Origin: an uncultured Pseudomonadota bacterium
GTDB taxonomy: Bacteria > Pseudomonadota > Alphaproteobacteria > Rs-D84
DNA length: 64,000 nt
Reading direction: 5' to 3'
Assembly: GCA_902802115.1 (NCBI GenBank)
Contig: CADCKW010000001.1
Coordinates: 152,700 to 216,699, forward strand
Below are positions 2 to 46,610 of this stretch, one piece after another. The position numbers and the translations under genes are program-made. The notes below the pieces were generated by a model. It made no database searches. It saw only the letters and a list, made by a program, of their open reading frames with translations, and was not told the origin of the DNA. Positions within the stretch are counted from its first letter, which is position 1. Each line of letters starts with the position of its first letter.

Positions 2-268
2 TTTGGCAGTGTATTTCAAATATTTAATCGCCCTGCATCTGGGGCTGACCTGACTGAACGATGGAACGAAATTATGGGCCCCGATATTGCGGCTGTTGCA
101 AAATTGGTCGCCATAAAAAAAACAGTTGGTAATAAATACAGTATTGTTATCAAACCAACAAATCCCGCATTGGCATTACAACTGTCATATTCAAACGATG
201 AAATATTGCGTCGCATAAATAAATATTTTGGCTATGCCGCAATATCAAAGATTACATATAAAAAATAG
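2..268 (+). CDS. DciA/DUF721-family protein, 5'-truncated by the window edge
   Basis: Frame is open from base 2 (FGSVFQIFNRPASGADLTERWNEIMGPDIAAVAK...LRRINKYFGYAAISKI). The W-x-E-I-x-G-x-x-I-A motif and the 'I..IN.FFG...I..I' end are typical of DUF721/DciA. Confidence 0.7.
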   Translation, partial: FGSVFQIFNRPASGADLTERWNEIMGPDIAAVAKLVAIKKTVGNKYSIVIKPTNPALALQLSYSNDEILRRINKYFGYAAISKITYKK

Positions 269-383
269 TTCTCCTCCACCGGAGGAGTACCCTGCGAATA
301 CAGGGGGAGGTGGTTTTAGTATTTCTTTTCATATTCTCTTACCACCCCGCCGCTTCGCGCCACCCCTCCAACGGATGGGAACT
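267..383. repeat. Two inverted copies of GC-rich palindromic repeat family A (267-314 forward, 341-383 reverse)
   Basis: agttctcctccaccggaggagtaccctgcgaatacagggggaggtggtt, and reverse complement agttcccatccgttggaggggtggcgcgaagcggcggggtggt. Both match the copies at 6674-6717 and 46564-46610. Confidence 0.85.
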
Positions 384-552: not shown

Positions 553-736
553 ACAAACTGTAATCATTCCCCGTCTTTTATCGTCACGACGGACTGTAAC
601 AAAGACAGACGAAAAAGAAGGGGTGGCACCCGCAGGGTGACGGGGTAATTGTGATAATAAAATTAATCAAAAAAAATCTGCAACAAAAATTGCAGATTTA
701 AAATTTCCTTTGATTCAGTGCATATAGAACAGACCC

Positions 737-2890
737 CTAATCATCTTCTTCTGGATTTTTTATCGTAAATGTATATCCACCCCCAGAACTCTTTTTAGAT
801 AACTGAGTATTCAATTTAGTCATTCCAAACATAATCGTTCTTAAACAAGCCTGAGCTTTGGACTTATCTAATTTTTTAGGATCAGAACCACATGTTGCTT
901 TATCTGCATACGCATTAAATACCGTCGTATTTGATGAATTCAAATGAGCACCAAGCACCCCTATATCATTTATCAACTGCTCTTTTAATTTTGGCTTCAA
1001 TTTATTTTTTTCAACCAATGGTTTCATACTTGTATAATTAGCTCTTATACACTCTAAAGCCTCCTGACTTCCCCTAGCCTCACAATCTTGCAACGCGATA
1101 TCATCATCACTTGATGAACCACCATCATCACTTGTTCCGCTGGCGACCTGCAAACTCGCCTTTAATGTCGCTTTTTCCAGCATAACCTTTAACCGTTTAA
1201 TCATAGATTCAACCATAGTATATTGTTTATACATCTGTTGTGAAATGACGGTTGATTTTAATCCAACAATGCGTTTGATTTCTTCTTGTTTGTCTGTTTT
1301 ATCCGGATTTTCTGTTTCACCGGCATTATATGCATGCACACTGCACAACGCATATGCAGGATTCACATATGAATTTGTTTCTGTATCACAACTCTGTTTA
1401 CACGATGCAGATGGATGTTCACAACAAATATCATCCTTTAAAGATTTCGAAACCGTAGCACTCCTTAAATCATCATCATTAGACACAGCACAAAATTTAT
1501 TTATTTCCTGTTTAATCTTTTCACTATTAACTTCGCTACTACTTCCAAAACTATTTGGTGCATCCTGTGATATCAAATATTCTAAAACATCTATACTCAC
1601 ACCACCCTTTTTACCACCGGCACGACGACGCCCTAATATACTCCCATCCAATGCACTGCTGGCACAACCAATACGAAGTTTATCATTATCTTCAGGATAC
1701 AACCACTTTTCTTGAACTTCCGCATCACCAAGTTCTTTATTCAATACACACATGGTATCATATTCTGGCGGTACCGGTCCATCATCCACACAATCAGCAC
1801 CACTCTTTTTAACACGCCCGCCTTTCACAGATTTACCATTTTTGCACGTATTTCCATCATACTTTGCCGCAGAAGCCTGACATATATATTCACCCCAACG
1901 ATTACACGAACCGTTTAACATCATATAAATATCGGTCATATCAACACCAACTGACTGTGCACGCACCAACGCATCGTCCAGGTTATCAACCAACGCATCG
2001 TATGGTTCAAAGAATTTCATAGCCAATTCTTTGAATTTTTTAACACGTTTTGGTCCGGTGCAATTATCACCATTTATTTCATTGCAACCGGCATAACGAA
2101 ACGCCTCGCGCATGGTTGATTTTAAATTTGCCAAACTGGAATCGACACCATCTAAACTGGTCATAATTTGTCCAGTAATTGTTGCACGCGCAATAGTATC
2201 TTCGGAAACACCTGATTTTGCCGCCGCAGTCTGTGCCGCGGTCAAACCGGTATCTGCATCTGGCGCACTCGCCCGCACCGTTGCGCTTTCAATTGCCGCA
2301 GCCTGTGCCTCGGCGGCGGCGCGTTGGCTTTCCGCCAAAGCATTTTGCAAAGACGCCATTTGTGCATTATTCTGTTCTTGCATTTGTTGCATCTGCATCT
2401 GCATTTGTTGTTGCATCACAGCAATCTGTTCGGCATTTTGTTGCGCAGCGGCAGCCTGGGCGGCGGCTTGTTGCTGTTGTGCGACCGCCTGGGACGAAGA
2501 CACCAACTGCCCTGCTATATATTCAATCAGTGCATCACCATGTTTTTTACACGCATCATTTGAATTTACACAACCCGACGCGATAGATTTTGCAACATTA
2601 AAATCGGCACAGCCCGTCCCTGAACATTTTGGTTTTGCACAACGCAAAACAACCGCCTCGCAATTACCATAATCAGCCTTGGCAACGGGGGCGTTTCCGC
2701 GTTGATTTGTCATCGTGTTCCATTGATTGCCCGCAATAGACCCCATTGCGCCATTATATCCGGTCAAATTACTGCCCGCGGTTTGTGAAATGGGTGCCGC
2801 CACCGCATACCCCAGCGGTGCAAAAACACACATAACCGACAAAATTTTTGTGATTATTCTCATATTCTCTCTTCCAAACAATTTTATCAT
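737..2890 (-). CDS. Secreted Cys-rich hypothetical protein with Gln/Ala-rich coiled coil (probable start 2863)
   Basis: 717-aa ORF. Signal peptide MRIITKILSVMCVFAPLGYAVAA, more than 30 Cys, QQQQAAAQAAAAQQ...MQQQMQMQMQQ tract. Confidence 0.85.
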   Translation of the reverse strand: MIKLFGRENMRIITKILSVMCVFAPLGYAVAAPISQTAGSNLTGYNGAMGSIAGNQWNTMTNQRGNAPVAKADYGNCEAVVLRCAKPKCSGTGCADFNVAKSIASGCVNSNDACKKHGDALIEYIAGQLVSSSQAVAQQQQAAAQAAAAQQNAEQIAVMQQQMQMQMQQMQEQNNAQMASLQNALAESQRAAAEAQAAAIESATVRASAPDADTGLTAAQTAAAKSGVSEDTIARATITGQIMTSLDGVDSSLANLKSTMREAFRYAGCNEINGDNCTGPKRVKKFKELAMKFFEPYDALVDNLDDALVRAQSVGVDMTDIYMMLNGSCNRWGEYICQASAAKYDGNTCKNGKSVKGGRVKKSGADCVDDGPVPPEYDTMCVLNKELGDAEVQEKWLYPEDNDKLRIGCASSALDGSILGRRRAGGKKGGVSIDVLEYLISQDAPNSFGSSSEVNSEKIKQEINKFCAVSNDDDLRSATVSKSLKDDICCEHPSASCKQSCDTETNSYVNPAYALCSVHAYNAGETENPDKTDKQEEIKRIVGLKSTVISQQMYKQYTMVESMIKRLKVMLEKATLKASLQVASGTSDDGGSSSDDDIALQDCEARGSQEALECIRANYTSMKPLVEKNKLKPKLKEQLINDIGVLGAHLNSSNTTVFNAYADKATCGSDPKKLDKSKAQACLRTIMFGMTKLNTQLSKKSSGGGYTFTIKNPEEDD

Positions 2891-2926
2891 AAAATATAAT
2901 TAAAAAAAAGCATAATTTTATAATTT

Positions 2927-2971
2927 CGCCCCTATTGGGGAGGGGGACCGACGAAGTCGGTGGAGGGGGTT
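2927..2971. repeat. Repeat family A variant
   Basis: cgcccctattggggagggggaccgacgaagtcggtggagggggtt. Same two-hairpin layout as 5841-5882. Confidence 0.75.
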
Positions 2972-3496: not shown

Positions 3497-4234
3497 TCAG
3501 CATCTTAATTTTTGATATTCAGACAATATTTTATTTTGCAAATCAATCGAACCGGCCTTGGATTTTGTATATTCAATCATCTTTTGTTCTTGGGTTTTAT
3601 CCATGTTATATATCATATACAAAACATTTTCAGATAACCGCGAATTCAAATTATATCTTTCACGAAACTCTATCTGGAATTTCAATGCCCGCGAAACCAA
3701 AGAAGACACAGGATAACTATATTCTAAACCATTTGGACTATAAATAACCCTTTCTAAATCTATCGTTTTATTCAGAATAAAATTATAAAAATGCGGTGTT
3801 GGCCTGATACACTTTTCATTATGTGAATAATATACGGCATTACAGTTAAAATCAAAAACATCACTAACGACAAAACACGGGTCATCTACATAATATTGAA
3901 ACACATCAATTATGCCAAAATTTTTTGTTTGTAATTTTACCCCACCCAAAGAATTCTGGCGCATAAATGTTATATTTGGATTACGAGTAAAATCTTGTTT
4001 TTTTGATAAAATAATATCAATATCTTTGGAATTATATTGTTTTGAAAACAATTCGTTCAAAACATGGTCACGAACAAGTCCGCCAACAAAAAACAATTTT
4101 GTATCCGGTTGAAACTTCAACTCGTTTGCAACCGCATTTCCTAATGGAATAATTTTACCAGCCGCCGCCTTTATTGCCGTATCAAAACTTTCTATACAAC
4201 ACCCCATATAAAAAACCCAAAATACATCACCCAC
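3497..4234 (-). CDS. Short class II nucleotidyltransferase (CCA-adding/poly(A) polymerase head domain), divergent
   Basis: FFVGGLVRD...SKDIDII (motif A with DxD) and DFNCNAVYY (motif B-like). Only 245 aa. Confidence 0.75.
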   Translation of the reverse strand: MGDVFWVFYMGCCIESFDTAIKAAAGKIIPLGNAVANELKFQPDTKLFFVGGLVRDHVLNELFSKQYNSKDIDIILSKKQDFTRNPNITFMRQNSLGGVKLQTKNFGIIDVFQYYVDDPCFVVSDVFDFNCNAVYYSHNEKCIRPTPHFYNFILNKTIDLERVIYSPNGLEYSYPVSSLVSRALKFQIEFRERYNLNSRLSENVLYMIYNMDKTQEQKMIEYTKSKAGSIDLQNKILSEYQKLRC

Positions 4235-5730: not shown

Positions 5731-7101
5731 ATGAACAACGATACAATATTTGCACTTTCCAGTGGTTTTGGAAAATCTGGTGTTGCAGTAATTCGCATAT
5801 CTGGCGATAATTTGCATGATTTTGCGACCAAACTTATATTCCCCCACTTGGGGGGGACGGACCACGCAGTGGCGGGGGGGGTAAAACCTCGCCATGCATA
5901 TTTTTGCAACCTGCGGGACGAAAATGGTGATTTAATCGACCAATGTATTACGATATATTTTGCCGCACCGCAATCTTTTACCGGGCAAGATGTTATTGAA
6001 ATTCACACACATGGTGCAACCGCAGTGATAAATAAAGTCTTTTCATTTTTATCCTATAATAATATGCGTATGGCAAACCCAGGTGAATTTTCGCGCCGCG
6101 CATTTATGAATAACAAAATGGATTTAACAGATGTTGATGGTCTGGCCGCATTGTTGGATGCCCAAACCGATAAACAACGACAATTCGCATTAAAATCTAT
6201 GTTGGGTGGCGACAGTGAAACATACACCGCATGGCGTTCCAAAATGATTGAAATTTCTGCATACGCCGCGGCAATACTGGATTATGACGCAGACGATTTA
6301 CCATTAAATATTGACAAACAGATTTTAACCAAAACACGCGAATTATATAATGAAATTAAAAATACACTTTCACATTATAATATATCACGCGCAATCACAC
6401 ATGGATTTAACATCGCATTGGTTGGCGAAACAAATGTTGGTAAATCATCATTGTTTAACAAATTGATTGGTTCAAATCGTGCAATCGTATCAAATACCCC
6501 GGGCACCACACGCGATGTAATATCTGCACAAATGGATATCGATGGATTTTTGGTAAATTTATCTGATACCGCCGGTATTCGTGAAACCGGTGACGAGATT
6601 GAAAAAATGGGAATCGACAAAACCAAACAAGAACAAGATTCCGCAGATTTAATTTTGCATGTATATGCTAACGAGTTCCCCTCCCATGGAGGGGTGGCGC
6701 AAAGCGACGGGGTGGTTAATTCTGCCCCCATGAGAAAGGATAATGAAATTATCGTCATCAACAAATGCGATACTTTCGCAACACACAATAATAAAAACGC
6801 AATTTATACATCAACCAAAACAAACCAAGGCATAGACGAGTTATTAAACACAATAAGAAAAAAATTGCATGAATTTATAGACACTGGTAAAAACACAATT
6901 GTTATAAATGCACGCACACATAAATTGCTGACTGATACAGAACAAGAATTAAAACACGCAATCGACGAATATGACGGTAATTATGATATATTTGCCGAAC
7001 ATGTGCGCGCCGCCGCTGATAACATTGGAAAAATTCTGGGTGTAATCAGCGCCAACGATGTTATGGACGCAACATTTTCTCAACTGTGTCTGGGGAAATG
7101 A
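5731..7101 (+). CDS. mnmE: tRNA modification GTPase MnmE with two in-frame palindromic repeat insertions
   Basis: DTIFALSS, SFTGQDVIEIHTHG, PGEFSRRAFMNNKMDL, GETNVGKSSLFN, PGTTRD, DTAGIRE, NKCD, FSQLCLGK. Confidence 0.97.
   Translation: MNNDTIFALSSGFGKSGVAVIRISGDNLHDFATKLIFPHLGGTDHAVAGGVKPRHAYFCNLRDENGDLIDQCITIYFAAPQSFTGQDVIEIHTHGATAVINKVFSFLSYNNMRMANPGEFSRRAFMNNKMDLTDVDGLAALLDAQTDKQRQFALKSMLGGDSETYTAWRSKMIEISAYAAAILDYDADDLPLNIDKQILTKTRELYNEIKNTLSHYNISRAITHGFNIALVGETNVGKSSLFNKLIGSNRAIVSNTPGTTRDVISAQMDIDGFLVNLSDTAGIRETGDEIEKMGIDKTKQEQDSADLILHVYANEFPSHGGVAQSDGVVNSAPMRKDNEIIVINKCDTFATHNNKNAIYTSTKTNQGIDELLNTIRKKLHEFIDTGKNTIVINARTHKLLTDTEQELKHAIDEYDGNYDIFAEHVRAAADNIGKILGVISANDVMDATFSQLCLGK
5841..5882 (+). 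repeat. Repeat family A copy inside the mnmE coding sequence
   Basis: cccccacttgggggggacggaccacgcagtggcggggggggt, read as PHLGGTDHAVAGG. Confidence 0.8.
6674..6717 (+). repeat. Repeat family A copy inside the mnmE coding sequence
   Basis: agttcccctcccatggaggggtggcgcaaagcgacggggtggtt, read as EFPSHGGVAQSDGVV. Close match to the intergenic copy at 341-383 (reverse). Confidence 0.9.
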
Positions 7102-7769: not shown

Positions 7770-7847
7770 ATAGATGCGCCGTTGTTTGCGAGCGTAGTGT
7801 ACGTGCGGCTACATGAGCGAGCAAACAACAAGCAGATATTCTATTAT
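7770..7847. repeat. ~78-nt structured repeat, family D copy 2
   Basis: atagatgcgccgttgtttgcgagcgtagtgtac...acatgagcgagcaaacaacaagcagata. Confidence 0.85.
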
Positions 7848-9418
7848 ATTTCGATATATTTCCCATCAATCAAATTCTGTTTGACCACATAATGCTTAAC
7901 CTTTTGCGTCGATGTCATCGGCAAATCATCGGTTGTCATTGCCATATGCGTCACCCATTTATATTTGGCAACGCGTTTATTCGCCTCGGCAACGGCATGC
8001 GACAGTTTTTCTGCGGTCATACCCTCTTCCACACTAAACACACCGTATGCAACCGTTTTACCTTGGACAACATGTTCAAAAACCGCAACATTTTTGACAC
8101 CTGGAATATCTAAAAACAGTGCCTCTAATTCATCTGGATAAACATTTTTGCCACTATCTAAAACAATCACTTGTTTTTTACGACCGGCAAAATGCAATTC
8201 ACCATTTTTATCCATATAGACCAAATCCCCTGTTTTGAAAAATCCACGTTCGTCAAAAGATTCTTTGTTGGCTTCGTCATTGTTCAAATAACCACCAAAC
8301 ACCTGGTGACCACGAACCCATAACATACCAATACCATTTTCATCTTTATCACGAATTTCGCATTCATTATTTCCCAATGGCGCACCAAACGCGTATGGTA
8401 TGCGCTTTTTCACCGGGCGCGAACCACAAAACGGCCCAACGGTTTCGGTCATACCATAACCTTGAATAAATGCGATACCCAAATCATTATAGAATTTTTC
8501 AACCTCTGGCTTGGTTGCCGCCCCGCCCGCAATCATCAACTGAACACGACCGCCAAATACAGCCTTGATTTGTTTTTGCACATTACGCACAATGAATCCC
8601 AGACCGATTTTCTGCAACCATTTTTGGTTTTTCAATATAAAAGAAACAATCCACCATTTTTTCTGGGATTTAATTTCTTCTATAATTTTTTTGCGGAACA
8701 ATTCCCACATTTTAGGCACAGATGGAATCACATGAGGTTTAAATTCTTTGAAATCCGCCAAAATCAATTTTGGATTTATTGATGATTGCAACAAAATACC
8801 CATTTGAAAATGCAGTGGTGCCAAAAATCCCGCAGCAAAACCAAAGATATGATACAGCGGTAAAAAACCATATAACACCCCACCCGGTTCAAACCATTGA
8901 TTAAAATCATCAAAAGAATTTGCACACTCTATCAAATTAAAATGTGTCAGTGGCACAATCTTTGGTGCGCCTGTTGAACCCGATGTAAATGACAATGTTG
9001 CAATATCATTTGCGTTTAATGGGTATGGTTCTAAATCTTCATCTGTTTCTGTGTCCTGGGTTTGAATATCAAAAAATTTAAAACCCGCTGCATCATAGAA
9101 AAAAGATTTTTCCGCCGCGACCAATTTGCATTGGGTAAGTTTCGTCATATTATCATATTCAGTTGGTGTTAAATTTGTATCCAACAACAACACGCGCGCA
9201 CCACGATACCATGCGGCGAACAAAGTCACAATAAATTCTGGAATATTGTGCGCCAACACACCCAAAGTATCACCAAAACCAACGCCAATTTTTTTCAGTG
9301 TTGTTGCACGTGCCTTGATAAATTTTGGAAAATCTTCAAATGTTATTTTTTCGCGGACCAGGAAAAGTGTCTTTGGACACTTTTCCACAGTCTGTTCAAA
9401 GAATTGGTACATATTCAT
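7844..9418 (-). CDS. AMP-binding long-chain acyl-CoA/acyl-ACP ligase, paralog 3
   Basis: FTSGSTGAPK, GYGMTET, FKTGD, GRKK..IVLDSGKNVYP, LPMTSTQKVK. Confidence 0.93.
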   Translation of the reverse strand: MNMYQFFEQTVEKCPKTLFLVREKITFEDFPKFIKARATTLKKIGVGFGDTLGVLAHNIPEFIVTLFAAWYRGARVLLLDTNLTPTEYDNMTKLTQCKLVAAEKSFFYDAAGFKFFDIQTQDTETDEDLEPYPLNANDIATLSFTSGSTGAPKIVPLTHFNLIECANSFDDFNQWFEPGGVLYGFLPLYHIFGFAAGFLAPLHFQMGILLQSSINPKLILADFKEFKPHVIPSVPKMWELFRKKIIEEIKSQKKWWIVSFILKNQKWLQKIGLGFIVRNVQKQIKAVFGGRVQLMIAGGAATKPEVEKFYNDLGIAFIQGYGMTETVGPFCGSRPVKKRIPYAFGAPLGNNECEIRDKDENGIGMLWVRGHQVFGGYLNNDEANKESFDERGFFKTGDLVYMDKNGELHFAGRKKQVIVLDSGKNVYPDELEALFLDIPGVKNVAVFEHVVQGKTVAYGVFSVEEGMTAEKLSHAVAEANKRVAKYKWVTHMAMTTDDLPMTSTQKVKHYVVKQNLIDGKYIEI

Positions 9419-9421
9419 AAT

Positions 9422-11002
9422 TTAAATACCCTTTTCTTGATATTTACCATCGATTAAATATTGACGAACGACATGATGTTTAACCTTTTGTGTTGATGTC
9501 AAAGGCAAATCGTCTGTTGTCATCGCGAAATGGGTCACCCATTTATAAGAAGCAACTTTTTTATTTTTTTCCGCGATTGCCTTTGCCAATTTTTCCATGG
9601 TCATATCACTATCCACAGAAAACACACCATATGCGACAGTTTTACCATTAACCTCGTGTTCGAAAACCGCCACATTTTTAACCCCAGGTATTTCGATAAA
9701 CAAACCTTCCAATTCATCTGGATAAACATTTTTACCGCTATCCAAAACGATGACTTGTTTTTTACGACCTGCGAAATGGAATTCACCGTTTTTATCGCAT
9801 GACACCAAATCGCCTGTGCAGAAAAATCCGTCTTTATCGAAACTTTCTTTATTGGCCGCGTCGTTATTCAAATATCCACCAAACACCTGTTTTCCTTTGA
9901 CCCACAACATACCAATACCGTTTTCGTCTTTGCTGCGGATTTCACAGCAATTTTCACCCAGTGGTGCGCCGAACGCATATGGCACACGTTTTTTTACAGG
10001 TTTAGAACAACAGATTGGTCCAACTGTTTCGGTCATACCATAACCTTGAACAAATGCCATACCTAAATTGTTATAAAAGTTTTCAACCTCTGGTTTTGTT
10101 GCGGCACCACCGGCGACCAAACAGCGCACACGACCACCGAACACCGAACGAATTTGATTCAAAACTTTATCAACCAATTTGCCCATTCCCAGCATACGCA
10201 AAGTTTTTTGATGATTCATAATAAATGATACCAACCACCATTTTTTCTTTGCTTTGACATTATCGACAATCTTTTTACGGAAAATTTCAAACACCTTTGG
10301 CACAGCCGGAATAACATGTGGTTTATATGTTGCAAAATCTTGCAATATTGCATTTGGGTTGATTGTTGATTGCAACAAAACACTCATACCAAAATGCAAA
10401 GGTGCCAAAAATCCAACTGCAAAACCAAACACATGATATAATGGTAAAAATCCATACATCATTTCACCATGGCGCAAGAAAATACTTAAACTTTCCAAAC
10501 TTTCCGAACAAGAAACCAAATTTTCATGCGTTAATGGCACAATTTTTGGGGTACCTGTTGAACCAGATGTAAATGACAGTGTTGCAATATCTTTGTCTTT
10601 TAATTTATAAGCCTTCAAAGATTCACCATCATCTTTATCTTTGGCCTGGATATCCAAAAACTTAAAGTTTTTTGTTTTATAAAAGAAAGATTTTTCTGCA
10701 ACAACAAATTTACAATCTGTGCGTTCAGTCATATTATCGTATTCAATTGGTGTTAAATTTGTATCCAATAATAATACCGTTCCACCAACATACCAAATTG
10801 CAAACAAAGTATAAATAAATTCAGGGATATTATGTGATAACAAACCAACTGTATCTCCTGGCTTTATCCCAGATGCAATCAACGATGCCGCACGTGCCTT
10901 GATAAACTTTGGCAATTGCGAAAAAGTAATATTTTCACGAACCAAAAAAACCATATCTGGATTTTTTGCTATATTCTGTTTTAACAATTCAATCATTGTC
11001 AT
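9422..11002 (-). CDS. AMP-binding long-chain acyl-CoA/acyl-ACP ligase, paralog 2
   Basis: FTSGSTGTPK, GYGMTET, FCTGD, LPLTSTQKVK. Confidence 0.93.
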   Translation of the reverse strand: MTMIELLKQNIAKNPDMVFLVRENITFSQLPKFIKARAASLIASGIKPGDTVGLLSHNIPEFIYTLFAIWYVGGTVLLLDTNLTPIEYDNMTERTDCKFVVAEKSFFYKTKNFKFLDIQAKDKDDGESLKAYKLKDKDIATLSFTSGSTGTPKIVPLTHENLVSCSESLESLSIFLRHGEMMYGFLPLYHVFGFAVGFLAPLHFGMSVLLQSTINPNAILQDFATYKPHVIPAVPKVFEIFRKKIVDNVKAKKKWWLVSFIMNHQKTLRMLGMGKLVDKVLNQIRSVFGGRVRCLVAGGAATKPEVENFYNNLGMAFVQGYGMTETVGPICCSKPVKKRVPYAFGAPLGENCCEIRSKDENGIGMLWVKGKQVFGGYLNNDAANKESFDKDGFFCTGDLVSCDKNGEFHFAGRKKQVIVLDSGKNVYPDELEGLFIEIPGVKNVAVFEHEVNGKTVAYGVFSVDSDMTMEKLAKAIAEKNKKVASYKWVTHFAMTTDDLPLTSTQKVKHHVVRQYLIDGKYQEKGI

Positions 11003-11033
11003 TTTTTATGTCCTTTATTTATAAATGAATAAA

Positions 11034-12614
11034 TTATTCATGTCTGTCAGGATATTTACCATCGATTAAATTTTTCCGCACAATATGATGCTTAATTTTT
11101 TGCGTACTGGTCACAGGTAAATCTTCTGTTGTCATCGCAAAATGGGTCACCCATTTATACGATGCAACTTTTTTATTTGCCTCGGCAACTGCATCTGCCA
11201 ACCTGTCCATTGTCATACCAGGTTCGACACTAAACACACCGTATGCAACGGTTTTATCTTTTACCTTGTGTTCAAACACCGCAACATTTTTTACACCCGG
11301 GATATCTAAAAACATGGCTTCTAATTCATCTGGATAAACATTTTTACCGCTATCCAAAACAATTACTTGTTTTTTGCGACCGGCAAAATGCAACTCACCA
11401 TTTTTATCCATATATACCATATCGCCAGTATTAAAGAACCCTTTGTCATCAAATGCTTCTTTGTTTGCCGCATCATTATTCAAATACCCACCAAACACCT
11501 GATGACCACGCAACCACAAAACACCAATGCCATTTTCGTCTTTATCGCGAATTTCGCATTCGTTATTTGTTGTCGGGCCACCCACAGAAAACGCCATACG
11601 TTTTTTATTTGGTTTTGAAATACAGATTGGTCCAACAGTTTCTGTTAAACCATAACCTTGAATAAATGCCAAACCCAAACTTTCATAGAAAGTTTCAACC
11701 TCTGGCTTGGTTGCGGCACCACCTGCAATCAACAACCTGACCCGTCCGCCGAAAATATCCAAAATAGGTTCTTGGACTTTGCGCACAAAAAATCCCAATC
11801 CCATATCGGTAATGCGTTCGCGATTGCGTAAAATAAATTCCACAATGCGCCACTTTTTTTGTGCCTTCAAAGTATCCATAATCTTATTTCTAAATAATTC
11901 CCACAAACGCGGTACAGCCGGAATAACATGCGGACGGAATTTTTTAAAATCGTCCATAATGTATTTTGGATTAACAGTTGGCTGTAAAACAATACCCGCC
12001 CCAAAATGCACAGTTGCCAAAATACCGATGGAAAAACCGAATATATGATACAAAGGCAAAAATCCATACATAACATCGCCTGAACCAAAATATTCAGCCA
12101 TATCTTCCAACGAATTTGCACACTCTGTTAAATTATAGTGTGTTAATGGCACGACCTTTGGACTGCCGGTTGAACCAGATGTAAAAGACAAAGTTGCAAT
12201 ATCACTGTCTTTGAATTCATACGGGCGCAACATTGGATTTGGCATACCGTCATTTGCGGTAATATCAATAAATTTAAACACATCTGTTTTATAGAAAAAT
12301 GACAATTCTGCAAAAACAAATTTACAATTTGCAATCGTCGCCATATTGTCATATTCAAACGGTGTTAAATTTGTATCCAACATCAATGCGCGCGCACCAA
12401 TATACCATATTGCGAACAATGTCAGCGGAAATTGAGGAATATTATGTGACAACACACCAACTGTATCACCGGCCTTGATGCCATGTTCCATCAGTGTCAC
12501 CGCACGTGCGCGAACCATTTCCATAAATTTTGAATACGTAATCCCTTCACGTACCAGAAACAGATTTTCCGGCCATTGCTGAACCGCTGTTTCTAACATA
12601 GTATTCATACTCAT
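11034..12614 (-). CDS. AMP-binding long-chain acyl-CoA/acyl-ACP ligase, paralog 1
   Basis: FTSGSTGSPK, GYGLTET, FNTGD, LPVTSTQKIK. Confidence 0.93.
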   Translation of the reverse strand: MSMNTMLETAVQQWPENLFLVREGITYSKFMEMVRARAVTLMEHGIKAGDTVGVLSHNIPQFPLTLFAIWYIGARALMLDTNLTPFEYDNMATIANCKFVFAELSFFYKTDVFKFIDITANDGMPNPMLRPYEFKDSDIATLSFTSGSTGSPKVVPLTHYNLTECANSLEDMAEYFGSGDVMYGFLPLYHIFGFSIGILATVHFGAGIVLQPTVNPKYIMDDFKKFRPHVIPAVPRLWELFRNKIMDTLKAQKKWRIVEFILRNRERITDMGLGFFVRKVQEPILDIFGGRVRLLIAGGAATKPEVETFYESLGLAFIQGYGLTETVGPICISKPNKKRMAFSVGGPTTNNECEIRDKDENGIGVLWLRGHQVFGGYLNNDAANKEAFDDKGFFNTGDMVYMDKNGELHFAGRKKQVIVLDSGKNVYPDELEAMFLDIPGVKNVAVFEHKVKDKTVAYGVFSVEPGMTMDRLADAVAEANKKVASYKWVTHFAMTTEDLPVTSTQKIKHHIVRKNLIDGKYPDRHE

Positions 12615-40115: not shown

Positions 40116-40150
40116 ATTACTCTATAAAAAAATAGTTAGTTGTCCCTACT

Positions 40151-40204
40151 TTATAAAAAAAACGACCATTTTTGGTCGTTAATCTTGGTAGCGGAGGAGG
40201 GACT
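40151..40204 (-). repeat. 54-bp exact direct repeat of the tRNA-Met 3' end plus terminator (copy of 40318-40371)
   Basis: ttataaaaaaaacgaccatttttggtcgttaatcttggtagcggaggagggact occurs twice, 167 bp apart. Confidence 0.95.
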
Positions 40205-40352
40205 GTATATTCCCACTCTTTTCATTCGTGGGCCCCTTTCCAAATCGCGACGGTTTTGCCACATTACATTTGCAAAACCTGCTATTTTGTCGGCCCCTGG
40301 GGGTCCTCGTCCCTGATTTATAAAAAAAACGACCATTTTTGGTCGTTAATCT

Positions 40353-40429
40353 TGGTAGCGGAGGAGGGACTCGGACCCCCGACACGCGGATTATGATTCC
40401 GCTGCTCTAACCAGCTGAGCTACTCCGCC
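40353..40429 (-). tRNA. tRNA with CAT anticodon, elongator type (Met)
   Basis: GGCGGAG.../CTCCGCT-A-CCA, GCGGA-ATCATAA-TCCGC. T-loop reads TCCGAGT. Confidence 0.93.
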
Positions 40430-45994: not shown

Positions 45995-46564
45995 ATGAAA
46001 TTTAAATTGATTTATTCAGGCGACATATTTGTCAATCCTAAAAAACGGGCCCAGCATATTTCGGATATCCGCATGCAATTTCACCCTCAATTGAAAAAGT
46101 TAGTTGAACACAGCCCATGGAATAATTTAACAAAATATATGCTGCCACACGCGTCCAAGGCACCGTTAATAACGCGCCATGTCGGCGGCATAGACTGGAA
46201 CCCTATTATCAGTCCAAACCTGAAAATGATTGCAGAATTAGATATTTTGTTATTACACCCTGAAATTGTTGGGGTTGCACGCAGCGATATCGATAATCGC
46301 ATAAAAACATTGATGGACGGTCTGCGTTGCCCACAAAACGAACACGAAATTGGGACAAACACACCGGCGAACATAGGGCCAATTTTCACATTATTGGACG
46401 ACGACCATTTGGTGACAAAACTGACGGTAAATACATCACACTTGTTGGCGCACGATATTATCCCTGAAAAATATCAAGGCAGTCCAGATTCAGTATTTGT
46501 GTTAATTGATGTAAATGTCCGCGTCACCGAAGGTAATTTGGAAAACCTGCCATTCATGGTGTAA
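45995..46564 (+). CDS. Hypothetical protein with a RusA-like DxDNxxKxxxD motif
   Basis: SDIDNRIKTLMDGL, LLDDDHLV. Confidence 0.7.
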   Translation: MKFKLIYSGDIFVNPKKRAQHISDIRMQFHPQLKKLVEHSPWNNLTKYMLPHASKAPLITRHVGGIDWNPIISPNLKMIAELDILLLHPEIVGVARSDIDNRIKTLMDGLRCPQNEHEIGTNTPANIGPIFTLLDDDHLVTKLTVNTSHLLAHDIIPEKYQGSPDSVFVLIDVNVRVTEGNLENLPFMV

Positions 46565-46610
46565 GTTCCCCTCCTGTGGAGGGGAGGGCCGGCTTTGCCG
46601 GCGGGGTGGT
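46564..46610 (+). repeat. Repeat family A copy starting at the stop codon
   Basis: agttcccctcctgtggaggggagggccggctttgccggcggggtggt. Confidence 0.85.

Follow-up and report, generated by a model that had tools for sequence, protein, structure and literature searches.

The 64-kb stretch of DNA analysed here (the window) contains mnmE, the gene for a tRNA-modifying GTPase, into which short, GC-rich palindromic modules have been inserted in frame at two places. Its product matches the Pfam domains TrmE_N (2.7e-35), MMR_HSR1 (8.6e-24) and MnmE_helical (1.9e-36) and the MnmE structure 1xzp (8.9e-66), and its P-loop, DTAG (residues 279-282), NKCD (344-347) and C-terminal CLGK motifs are all intact. 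The gene has 38% GC apart from two GC-rich segments. The host clade consists of uncultured gut and rumen alphaproteobacteria that are labelled 'Candidatus Enterousia' or 'Alphaproteobacteria bacterium'. A bovine-gut sequencing run contains the exact window sequence, contigs of two other runs carry 69 different bases in place of 5830-5886, and the same mnmE alleles were found again in independent assemblies and runs (X1, X2, X4, X5, P0001, P0002). Throughout, L labels refer to related or metagenome loci, P labels to ortholog proteins, and X labels to contigs from other runs or libraries. The positions of the gene and of the module copies are collected in Table 1.

Table 1. mnmE and the module copies of the window (nt, nucleotides; aa, amino acids; ORF, open reading frame).
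Feature	Position	Strand	Remarks
mnmE, tRNA U34 carboxymethylaminomethyl-modification GTPase	5731-7101	+	456 aa; ORF list, Pfam and PDB homology
Site-1 module	5838-5882	+	45 nt, ATTCCCCCACTTGGGGGGGACGGACCACGCAGTGGCGGGGGGGGT; replacement unit reaches 5886
Site-2 module	6674-6716	+	43 nt, AGTTCCCCTCCCATGGAGGGGTGGCGCAAAGCGACGGGGTGGT; between G3 and G4 motifs of the G domain
Head fragment of truncated second module	6718-6732	+	15 nt, AATTCTGCCCCCATG; encodes NSAPM; subfamily B (SAPxGR...GGGG)
Intergenic module, left arm of ORF-less inverted doublet (module→ ←module)	267-314	+	
Intergenic module, right arm of the doublet	341-383	-	closest relative in the window of the site-2 copy
Intergenic solo module, CGCCCC-headed subfamily	2924-2970	+	between 717-aa gene and ruvC
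Solo module adjoining stop codon of 189-aa ORF	46564-46610	+	strongest fold, -15.9 kcal/mol, z = -4.5
Candidate module (tentative)	567-646	+	hairpin 1 (ATTCCCC ... GGGGTGG) split by about 47 nt; 3' part 616-646 intact

A first-pass annotation of the window had reported two palindromic repeats inserted in frame into MnmE, and the sequence and the ORF translation confirm this observation. It had the second copy starting where we find it, and the first at 5841, a 5' end clipped by three bases. The site-1 module is translated as I36-FPHLGGTDHAVAGGV-K52 and encodes F37-V51; the site-2 region reads E315-FPSHGGVAQSDGVV, of which the module encodes E315-V329 (EFPSHGGVAQSDGVV), and the frame is kept at both. 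Peptides containing the inserts, EFPSHGGVAQSDGVVNSAPMR and LIFPHLGGTDHAVAGGVKPR, are expected from the translation. Site 2 is more than was first recognized, namely one module plus a fraction of another. This head fragment matches the start of the complete subfamily-B modules at both hotspots of L203 (AATTCCGCCCCCATGGGG), as well as subfamily-B modules in the orthologs P0004, P0012 and P0030. Both sites had been assigned to one repeat family. The architecture agrees with this, since the two copies have in common a TTC head, a C-rich/G-rich hairpin, a second small hairpin and a G-run tail; with only 66% identity between them, the site-1 copy is better described as a sister subfamily of the site-2 copy.

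The site-2 copy had also been called nearly identical to the intergenic copy at 341. Their identity is 38/43 (88%), but as reverse complements, an orientation that had gone unstated; the repeat finder lists the pair as the longest inverted repeat of the window. The 341 copy forms an inverted doublet with the module that starts at 267. Searching the window with the site-2 43-mer at ≤3 mismatches returned only the query itself, the 341 copy differing by five, and dinucleotide shuffles gave an expectation of 0 matches even at that tolerance.

Modules are 42-50 nt long and consist of an (A/G)TTC head, hairpin 1 (a C-rich arm, a 3-nt loop and a G-rich arm), a variable hairpin 2 and the tail CGGGG(T/A)GG(T/G). 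As single-stranded DNA, the copies in the window fold into a common two-hairpin shape at -8 to -16 kcal/mol, with the site-1 module forming two DNA hairpins at -10.7 kcal/mol. Hairpin 2 differs in both sequence and length among 127 distinct copies yet stays paired, and in the 42-nt class compensatory changes are seen in 4/5 of its pairs (19 cells versus 4.0±1.7 in shuffled sets, 0/500). The loop of hairpin 2 is usually a C-GNA-G triloop (60 of the 127 copies). C-GNA-G is a very stable DNA triloop, and its frequency hints that the single-stranded DNA form of the module matters. Taken as a whole, the analysis shows the module to be a dispersed, structurally constrained repeat. A strict two-hairpin descriptor gave 23 hits versus 4 in reversed-sequence controls and missed the copies at 6674 and 341, which have a G·A mismatch; a relaxed descriptor (41 versus 12 in controls) was more sensitive, with false hits in GC-rich loci. 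Rfam, at gathering thresholds or E≤1, found only tRNAs and two sub-threshold chance matches. A metagenome scan with the head hairpin GTTCCCCTCCNNNGGAGGGGTGG returned at least 120 contigs of 29-68% GC, which by their names come from many projects. A phage or plasmid vector was considered and rejected, the head motif being present in only 2 of 2.9 million viral contigs and in one PLSDB plasmid (Pleomorphomonas).

An AlphaFold2 model of the window MnmE (mean predicted local distance difference test score, pLDDT, 71.8) places site 1 between helix 29-36 and strand 56-62 of the N-terminal domain, and site 2 between strands 307-312 and 339-344, also between DTAG and NKCD. At residues 41-48 (site 1) and 317-334 (site 2) the pLDDT falls below 50 and no secondary structure is predicted. 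Model and motifs bear out the loop placement proposed at first, in the N-terminal domain and in the G domain between DTAG and NKxD, and the mapping suggested at that stage puts both inserts in low-pLDDT loops. As modelled, both are disordered surface loops that the protein tolerates.

Metatranscriptome contigs from two libraries (X26 and X27) run across site 2 with no gap, and a third RNA library has a subfamily-B allele there. Judged from these RNA-library contigs, which show no skipping joints across site 2 and in which DNA carry-over is possible, the MnmE inserts are transcribed. These data bear on the suggestion that the insert is removed before the mature protein appears, through RNA excision, ribosomal bypassing or protein splicing, leaving MnmE unchanged. 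In Magnusiomyces mitochondria, GC-rich hairpin inserts of similar size are bypassed. The ribosome likewise bypasses a GC-rich hairpin insert of similar size in gene 60 of phage T4 (bioRxiv 10.1101/2022.08.31.505936). Removal is nevertheless very improbable for MnmE: the RNA-library contigs retain the site-2 insert, all alleles are in frame, stop-free and changed by whole codons while the lengths of free modules fall in all three mod-3 classes (54/46/27), no take-off and landing codon pair with an adjacent stop is present, and 15 aa is far below intein size.

For comparison, 190 distinct MnmE orthologs were aligned (58-98% identity). The commonest length, about 431 aa, is the base length without inserts. 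Neither insert is present in 122 orthologs, 33 have an insert at site 1 only, 19 at site 2 only and 16 at both. The alignment, which the first-pass annotation had named as the check for empty alleles, therefore gives 141/190 orthologs without a site-1 insert and 155/190 without a site-2 module. The latter are made up of 148 with the base loop length and seven with a longer native loop (TPENxP...SRIGPN), which belongs to one subclade and is not a module. Alignable residues of the same length in the orthologs would have meant that nothing was inserted; instead, 122/190 are empty at both sites. Length variation of at least 5 aa is confined to window residues of about 35-50 and 315-340, plus a minor site after NKxD.

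The inserts are of several subfamilies, including FPxxGG...GGV, SAPxGR...GGGG, NNPxL...FRGRV, SSPL...GVV and others. L027 has a tandem array of four modules, and at site 1 of L002 a partly deleted copy retains hairpin 1 alone. Every MnmE allele is in frame, with a stop-free insert and a whole-codon net change. With the hotspots masked, parsimony on a neighbour-joining tree requires at least 31 presence/absence changes at site 1 and at least 27 at site 2. The turnover is evident even among close relatives, as illustrated by four alleles with 95-97% identity outside the hotspots and four different site combinations. The window allele has an FPx-type module at site 1 and module A plus the fragment at site 2; L001 has the same site 1 and an empty site 2; L202 has a different subfamily at site 1 and the site 2 of the window; and L203 has subfamily B at both. 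In addition, the filled site 1 and empty site 2 of L001 (96.6% nt identity) support the earlier claim that the two insertions are independent. These alignments show the two MnmE loops to be recurrent insertion hotspots with fast turnover.

Exact junctions can be read from two pairs of filled and empty alleles. In the pair L006 and L206 (97.5% identity), module DNA of 81 nt takes the place of 30 native nt of the empty allele; between L207 and L042 (97% nt identity), 49 nt (ATTCCCCC...GGGGGGGGTAAAA) that are homologous to the site-1 unit of the window replace 19 native nt. In both pairs the flanks are identical right to the junction and lack any target-site duplication; the events are thus replacements that add a net number of whole codons. 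The MnmE sites as a whole have no target-site duplication or fixed target motif, and their 5' flanks are mostly A or G and otherwise variable. A 'GGTGGT' target, hinted at by QueA site a and by the tandem arrays, is unsupported by other sites. The comparisons show that the MnmE copies arose recently and repeatedly, by in-frame replacement within disordered loops. Recurrence, with several module subfamilies hitting the same hotspots, and the replacement of native loop codons both go beyond what was first noted.

It could be supposed that nothing here is mobile, and that the inserts represent local loop expansion (slippage or GC-biased conversion) or an assembly artefact. GTPase loops do vary naturally, as the longer native site-2 loop of one subclade illustrates. 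This supposition has next to no probability and is already refuted by the identity across loci: copies with 88% identity lie 6 kb and 40 kb away and also in unrelated genes and in metagenomes. Identical alleles also recur in independent assemblies and runs.

The copies of the window outside mnmE are similarly polymorphic. L001 lacks the solo module next to ruvC (a spacer of about 29 nt versus 94) and has no counterpart of the tentative split module. It also lacks the whole doublet 267-383, which sits in the 3' end of dciA. The doublet is flanked by a diverged duplication of the dciA 3' end (233-268 and 389-424, about 24/36 identical), and both the doublet and the left copy of this duplication are missing from the 97%-identical L001, so that the window dciA has a replaced C-terminus (KITYKK versus KITFRK). 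A separate, ORF-less multi-hairpin element at 433-554, GTCATCCCGGC-ATA-GGCCGGGAT...ATACCGCA-CGC-CTGCGGTATGAC, is present in L001 too. Both its ends and its inner hairpins match terminal repeats of the GIY-YIG nuclease element in L016 (11375-11817); with it, the genome has a second family of hairpin elements associated with a nuclease.

A candidate partner gene for the module comes from related loci, and here the analysis goes further beyond the first annotation: modules form the ends of an element that encodes a DUF559 endonuclease. The full element is about 450 bp long and has the order module→ DUF559 ORF ←module, the modules forming its terminal inverted repeat. Inverted modules flank the ORF in all DUF559 loci inspected (L027, L028, L046, L199, L208-L212 and L213-L222). 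In these loci the ORF reads away from a complete module, with the G-rich tail 5-10 nt ahead of the ATG, a position that may be likened to that of a ribosome-binding site. Free-standing units are found in metagenome-assembled genomes of Enterousia-like bacteria, between thrS and yebC in L027 (where the protein has 122 aa) and L028; other units adjoin a tRNA gene (L208-L212) or directly follow mnmE (L046). The connection to the window is close, the site-2 module being 88% identical to the left terminal repeat of a DUF559 element borne by QueA (L089). ORF-less forms, that is, solo modules, inverted doublets (window 267-383, L022, L138, L139) and tandem arrays, far outnumber full elements, with many solo copies.

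In the related loci, DUF559 matches Pfam PF04480 at 1e-26 to 1e-29 and PDB 3hrl at 1e-16, keeps E-x-D...H-D and has the invariant IEID...H motif. It is therefore predicted to be a Vsr-like PD-(D/E)XK endonuclease of the EDxHD type. This is in agreement with the literature, which groups it with Vsr and the homing endonuclease I-Bth0305I, in the EDxHD homing-endonuclease family (PMC9403480, PMC3384342) and in the Vsr-like branch of PD-(D/E)XK nucleases (PMC3424549), and DUF559 genes are reported to be enriched among genes flanked by inverted repeats (PMC9881135). The family is very large, with 7949 hits at E≤1e-10 among 8000 candidates scored, mostly of 115-122 aa. In the literature on DUF559, on EDxHD nucleases and on the literal module sequence, no description of a module-DUF559 element was found.

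The presence of one consistent gene between inverted modules is also relevant to a different type of mobility, single-stranded DNA transposition of the repetitive extragenic palindromic (REP)/REPIN or IS200/IS605 kind, in which an unseen Y1 transposase (RAYT/TnpA) would move the modules and DUF559 would be only a frequent neighbour or target. Size and hairpins are REP-like, inverted doublets such as window 267-383, L138 and L139 are REPIN-like, the C-GNA-G triloops favour a single-stranded form, and the lack of target-site duplication is as in IS200/IS605. We consider this improbable. The head is (A/G)TTC, with no GTAG or CGTC tag (criterion of PMC3733652), and the Pfam listings of the genes of the window and of neighbouring loci include no Y1_Tnp domain. 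Furthermore, it is DUF559 that consistently stands where a RAYT stands between REPs, and target DNA is replaced, with varying 5' flanks and no landing 3' of a fixed tetranucleotide.

Modules are not restricted to mnmE. Long ORFs of low-GC metagenome contigs contain many copies, which occur in either orientation and in each of the six frames. Two positions of QueA, found in different contigs, have an in-frame insert of about 145 aa made up of one module, DUF559 and a second, inverted module; AspRS has the same unit (L140). An ORF-less doublet lies in frame in Nth (endonuclease III, L157), and a solo module in CarB (carbamoyl-phosphate synthase, L184). QueA has at least three module or element sites, with solo or decayed modules at sites beyond those of full elements, and one 90% cluster contains both QueA alleles of 349-354 aa and an allele of 527 aa, the difference being the DUF559 unit. 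QueA contigs with an in-frame DUF559 unit, doublet or solo module are L089, L091, L127, L136, L141, L158, L163, L174 and L179. As a filled/empty pair, QueA L174 and L225 were set aside because about 89% identity is too diverged for exact junctions. The empty QueA allele P0248 (L225, about 1595-1612) reads GTAAAAAGTTCCGAT where others carry the element; it contains the module head AAGTTCC, which could be coincidence, a target or an excision footprint.

The first-pass annotation had proposed a search of other coding sequences for the repeat. This found QueA, AspRS and others in metagenome contigs. In 1.43 Mb around mnmE from 81 Enterousia-like relatives the genuine modules within coding sequences are in mnmE only (about 18, versus about 14 intergenic). 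Tolerant loops alone do not account for this bias. The 3' end of mnmE is a third target. In L046 (3168-3729) the last 17 mnmE codons are duplicated (53 nt, 48/53 identical) on either side of a 456-nt DUF559 element, and in L016 (11251-11877) a 523-nt element lies at the same site with a 52-nt duplication (47/52 identical). The L016 element has other hairpin ends and encodes a GIY-YIG nuclease (PF01541, 4.9e-13). Two unrelated nuclease families thus use one site at the mnmE 3' end, and the gene is kept intact.

We consider it reasonably probable that the MnmE inserts are solo ends of a selfish module-DUF559-module element, ORF-less units of which are mobilised in trans and placed by break repair. 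In this model, ORF-less modules would be non-autonomous units on which the DUF559 endonuclease acts in trans. New copies replace 19-30 nt of target at the two MnmE sites with no duplication, which would point to nuclease-initiated break repair and not to cut-and-paste transposition. A module, being GC-rich and usually without stops, would yield a Gly/Pro-rich peptide of 10-17 aa whenever the net length of an event is a multiple of three, and such an insert would survive only in a disordered surface loop. Once in a loop, modules would turn over quickly: strains exchange them by homologous recombination, other copies convert them, tandem arrays build up, and deletion or slippage occurs between the two G-runs.

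The main rival interpretation is a homing footprint, in which full elements homed into the MnmE loops and later lost the ORF and one arm, leaving immobile solo modules. Full elements do occur in frame in loops of QueA and AspRS, where QueA also has solo or decayed modules elsewhere, and a full DUF559 element is present at the mnmE 3' end in L046. The patchy empty, filled and degenerate alleles would fit a cycle of invasion, decay and loss, and the diverged flanks of some alleles resemble co-conversion tracts. We regard this as unlikely for the MnmE sites, for several reasons. None of the 68 filled alleles retains an ORF remnant or second arm, some of which random deletions should have left; the clean pairs go directly from native DNA to module(s), with identical flanks; simple deletion would not produce direct tandem arrays (up to four) or the many intergenic solo modules; and modules are far more numerous than DUF559 ORFs.

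Several observations weigh against mobilisation in trans by DUF559, or limit how far it extends. The trans step is inferred from the architecture of the elements. Six-frame hmmsearch found no DUF559 ORF in the 64-kb window, which would have placed module and nuclease together in this genome, and none of the 68 insert-bearing MnmE alleles has one at site 1 or 2. The DNA of empty sites differs between lineages, so no nuclease recognition sequence is evident. Part of the turnover has another origin. Between the window and L001, whose mnmE genes are otherwise near-identical over long stretches, identity drops to only about 65% for some 60 nt that follow site 2 and take in the NKxD region (window 6672-6790), and L202 differs from the window locally for about 40 nt on both sides of site 1. 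These diverged flanks show that some allele changes are imports by homologous recombination. Insertions at 3' ends (the dciA doublet and L046 mnmE) have duplications of 36-53 nt and those in the MnmE loops have none, so there may be several routes. Six-frame stop-freeness (54% of modules versus 25% of fully and 46% of partly shuffled sequences) was rejected as evidence of selection, the enrichment being modest and mostly a by-product of GC content.

Compared with known systems, the outcome is like that of Rickettsia palindromic elements (RPEs), the architecture is like that of REP/RAYT and the nuclease is like that of EDxHD homing endonucleases, but no family's defining set is complete. RPEs are dispersed palindromes, both intergenic and in frame in conserved genes, where they add a surface peptide and function is kept (Ogata et al. 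2000, in the summary given by PMC3184786). The modules resemble them in these respects and in encoding no transposase inside the repeat, and the MnmE copies, as modelled, are in-frame palindromes at the protein surface of a conserved gene. The proposal that selfish repeats of a family other than RPEs add protein sequence here is supported, and the module family is also intergenic in the window and its relatives. They differ in size (42-50 nt versus about 105-146 bp for RPEs, PMC3184786), in having the partner gene DUF559, and in hitting the same two loops of one gene repeatedly, with polymorphism within species. Going by the descriptions of RPEs, the host, a 'Candidatus Enterousia'-like gut alphaproteobacterium and not Rickettsia, also sets them apart.

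Like REPs and REPINs, the modules are short GC-rich hairpins that occur as solo units and inverted doublets with no target duplication. The RAYT gene, which is presumed to mobilise REPs, is flanked by inverted REPs (PMC3184786), and DUF559 is likewise flanked by inverted repeats. However, the flanked gene encodes a Vsr-like PD-(D/E)XK nuclease and not a Y1 HUH transposase, and where a REP has a GTAG or CGTC tag at one end of a 20-40 bp palindrome (PMC3733652), the module has an (A/G)TTC head and a GG(T/G)GGT tail. REPs are extragenic, whereas modules, with two hairpins and a G-tail, are common inside genes and occur on contigs of 29-68% GC, not in one genus. Miniature inverted-repeat transposable elements of DDE insertion sequences also fit poorly. 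The doublets do have inverted ends, but the clean pairs are replacements without duplication, the duplications at 3' ends are long and variable (36-53 nt) and not of a short fixed length, and the only ORF between matching ends is DUF559, not a DDE transposase.

EDxHD and Vsr-like homing endonucleases, such as I-Bth0305I (PMC3239194, PMC3384342, PMC2677866), share with the DUF559 of related loci the Vsr-like fold and the catalytic E, D, H and D residues. Further likenesses are the invasion of conserved housekeeping genes with patchy presence and absence, and the swapping of nuclease families at one site (DUF559 in L046, GIY-YIG in L016), as for HNH, VSR-like and GIY-YIG nucleases in phage. As to site-specific homing with co-conversion of flanks, the signs are mixed: diverged patches lie by L001 site 2 and L202 site 1, the flanks are identical in L006/L206 and L207/L042, and empty-site DNA differs between lineages. 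Known members lie in group I introns, in inteins or free-standing between genes. The DUF559 nuclease differs in having hairpin terminal inverted repeats and leaving many ORF-less derivatives, and when borne by QueA or AspRS it is read through in frame as an internal domain that is flanked by modules only. An Rfam scan of the module regions of the window, and not of the QueA and AspRS contigs, found no intron. Some organellar elements are also similar: the GC clusters of yeast mitochondria and the byps of Magnusiomyces are GC-rich mobile palindromes of 30-60 nt inside protein genes of an AT-rich genome, and byps are skipped by the ribosome. The MnmE modules differ from byps in being in frame, stop-free and apparently translated. 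Bypass elements in general (T4 gene 60 or byps) do not match inserts that are stop-free whole codons in all alleles and are retained in RNA-library contigs.

Other features of the window were also recorded. Three tandem AMP-binding (acyl-CoA synthetase-like) paralogs of 524-526 aa and 67-77% DNA identity lie at 7844-12614 (-), an arrangement kept in L001 and L203. A 245-aa ORF between ruvC and yebC (3497-4234, -) is missing from the syntenic L001 and has a weak, sub-cut-off match to the head domain of poly(A) polymerase/nucleotidyltransferase (E = 0.003). The 717-aa Cys-rich protein at 737-2890 (-) has a signal-like N-terminus and a long Gln/Ala repeat but no real Pfam match, and measures 746 aa in L001. 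A 63-nt direct repeat (97%) is found at 40142-40204 and 40309-40371, with 167 nt between the copies; the second copy overlaps the 3' end of a tRNA gene (40356-40429, -), so that the tRNA 3' end and the terminator hairpin have been duplicated.

In-frame palindromic inserts have so far been mostly a Rickettsia curiosity, with no known mobilising enzyme, and an identifiable candidate partner gene makes the mechanism testable. Strains that are about 97% identical and have different peptides in the same two loops of a GTPase from an essential pathway provide a natural experiment on how selfish DNA makes and erases protein sequence, and both MnmE loops are proven to accept inserted peptides. In practical terms, modules break metagenome assemblies, inflate length variation among orthologs and can mislead gene callers and strain typing. 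More tentatively, module-DUF559-module may represent an undescribed class of bacterial mobile element, which spreads across distant bacteria, enters essential genes in frame with no intron or intein, its ends and ORF alike being translated as additional domains, and seeds modules that rewrite loops. If so, this class would give a biological role to the very large DUF559 family, whose members carry no annotation beyond 'endonuclease domain-containing protein': the nuclease gene persists within host enzymes because it is translated as one of their internal domains, and its ORF-less modules would repeatedly rewrite the surface loops of tRNA-related enzymes such as MnmE, QueA and AspRS.

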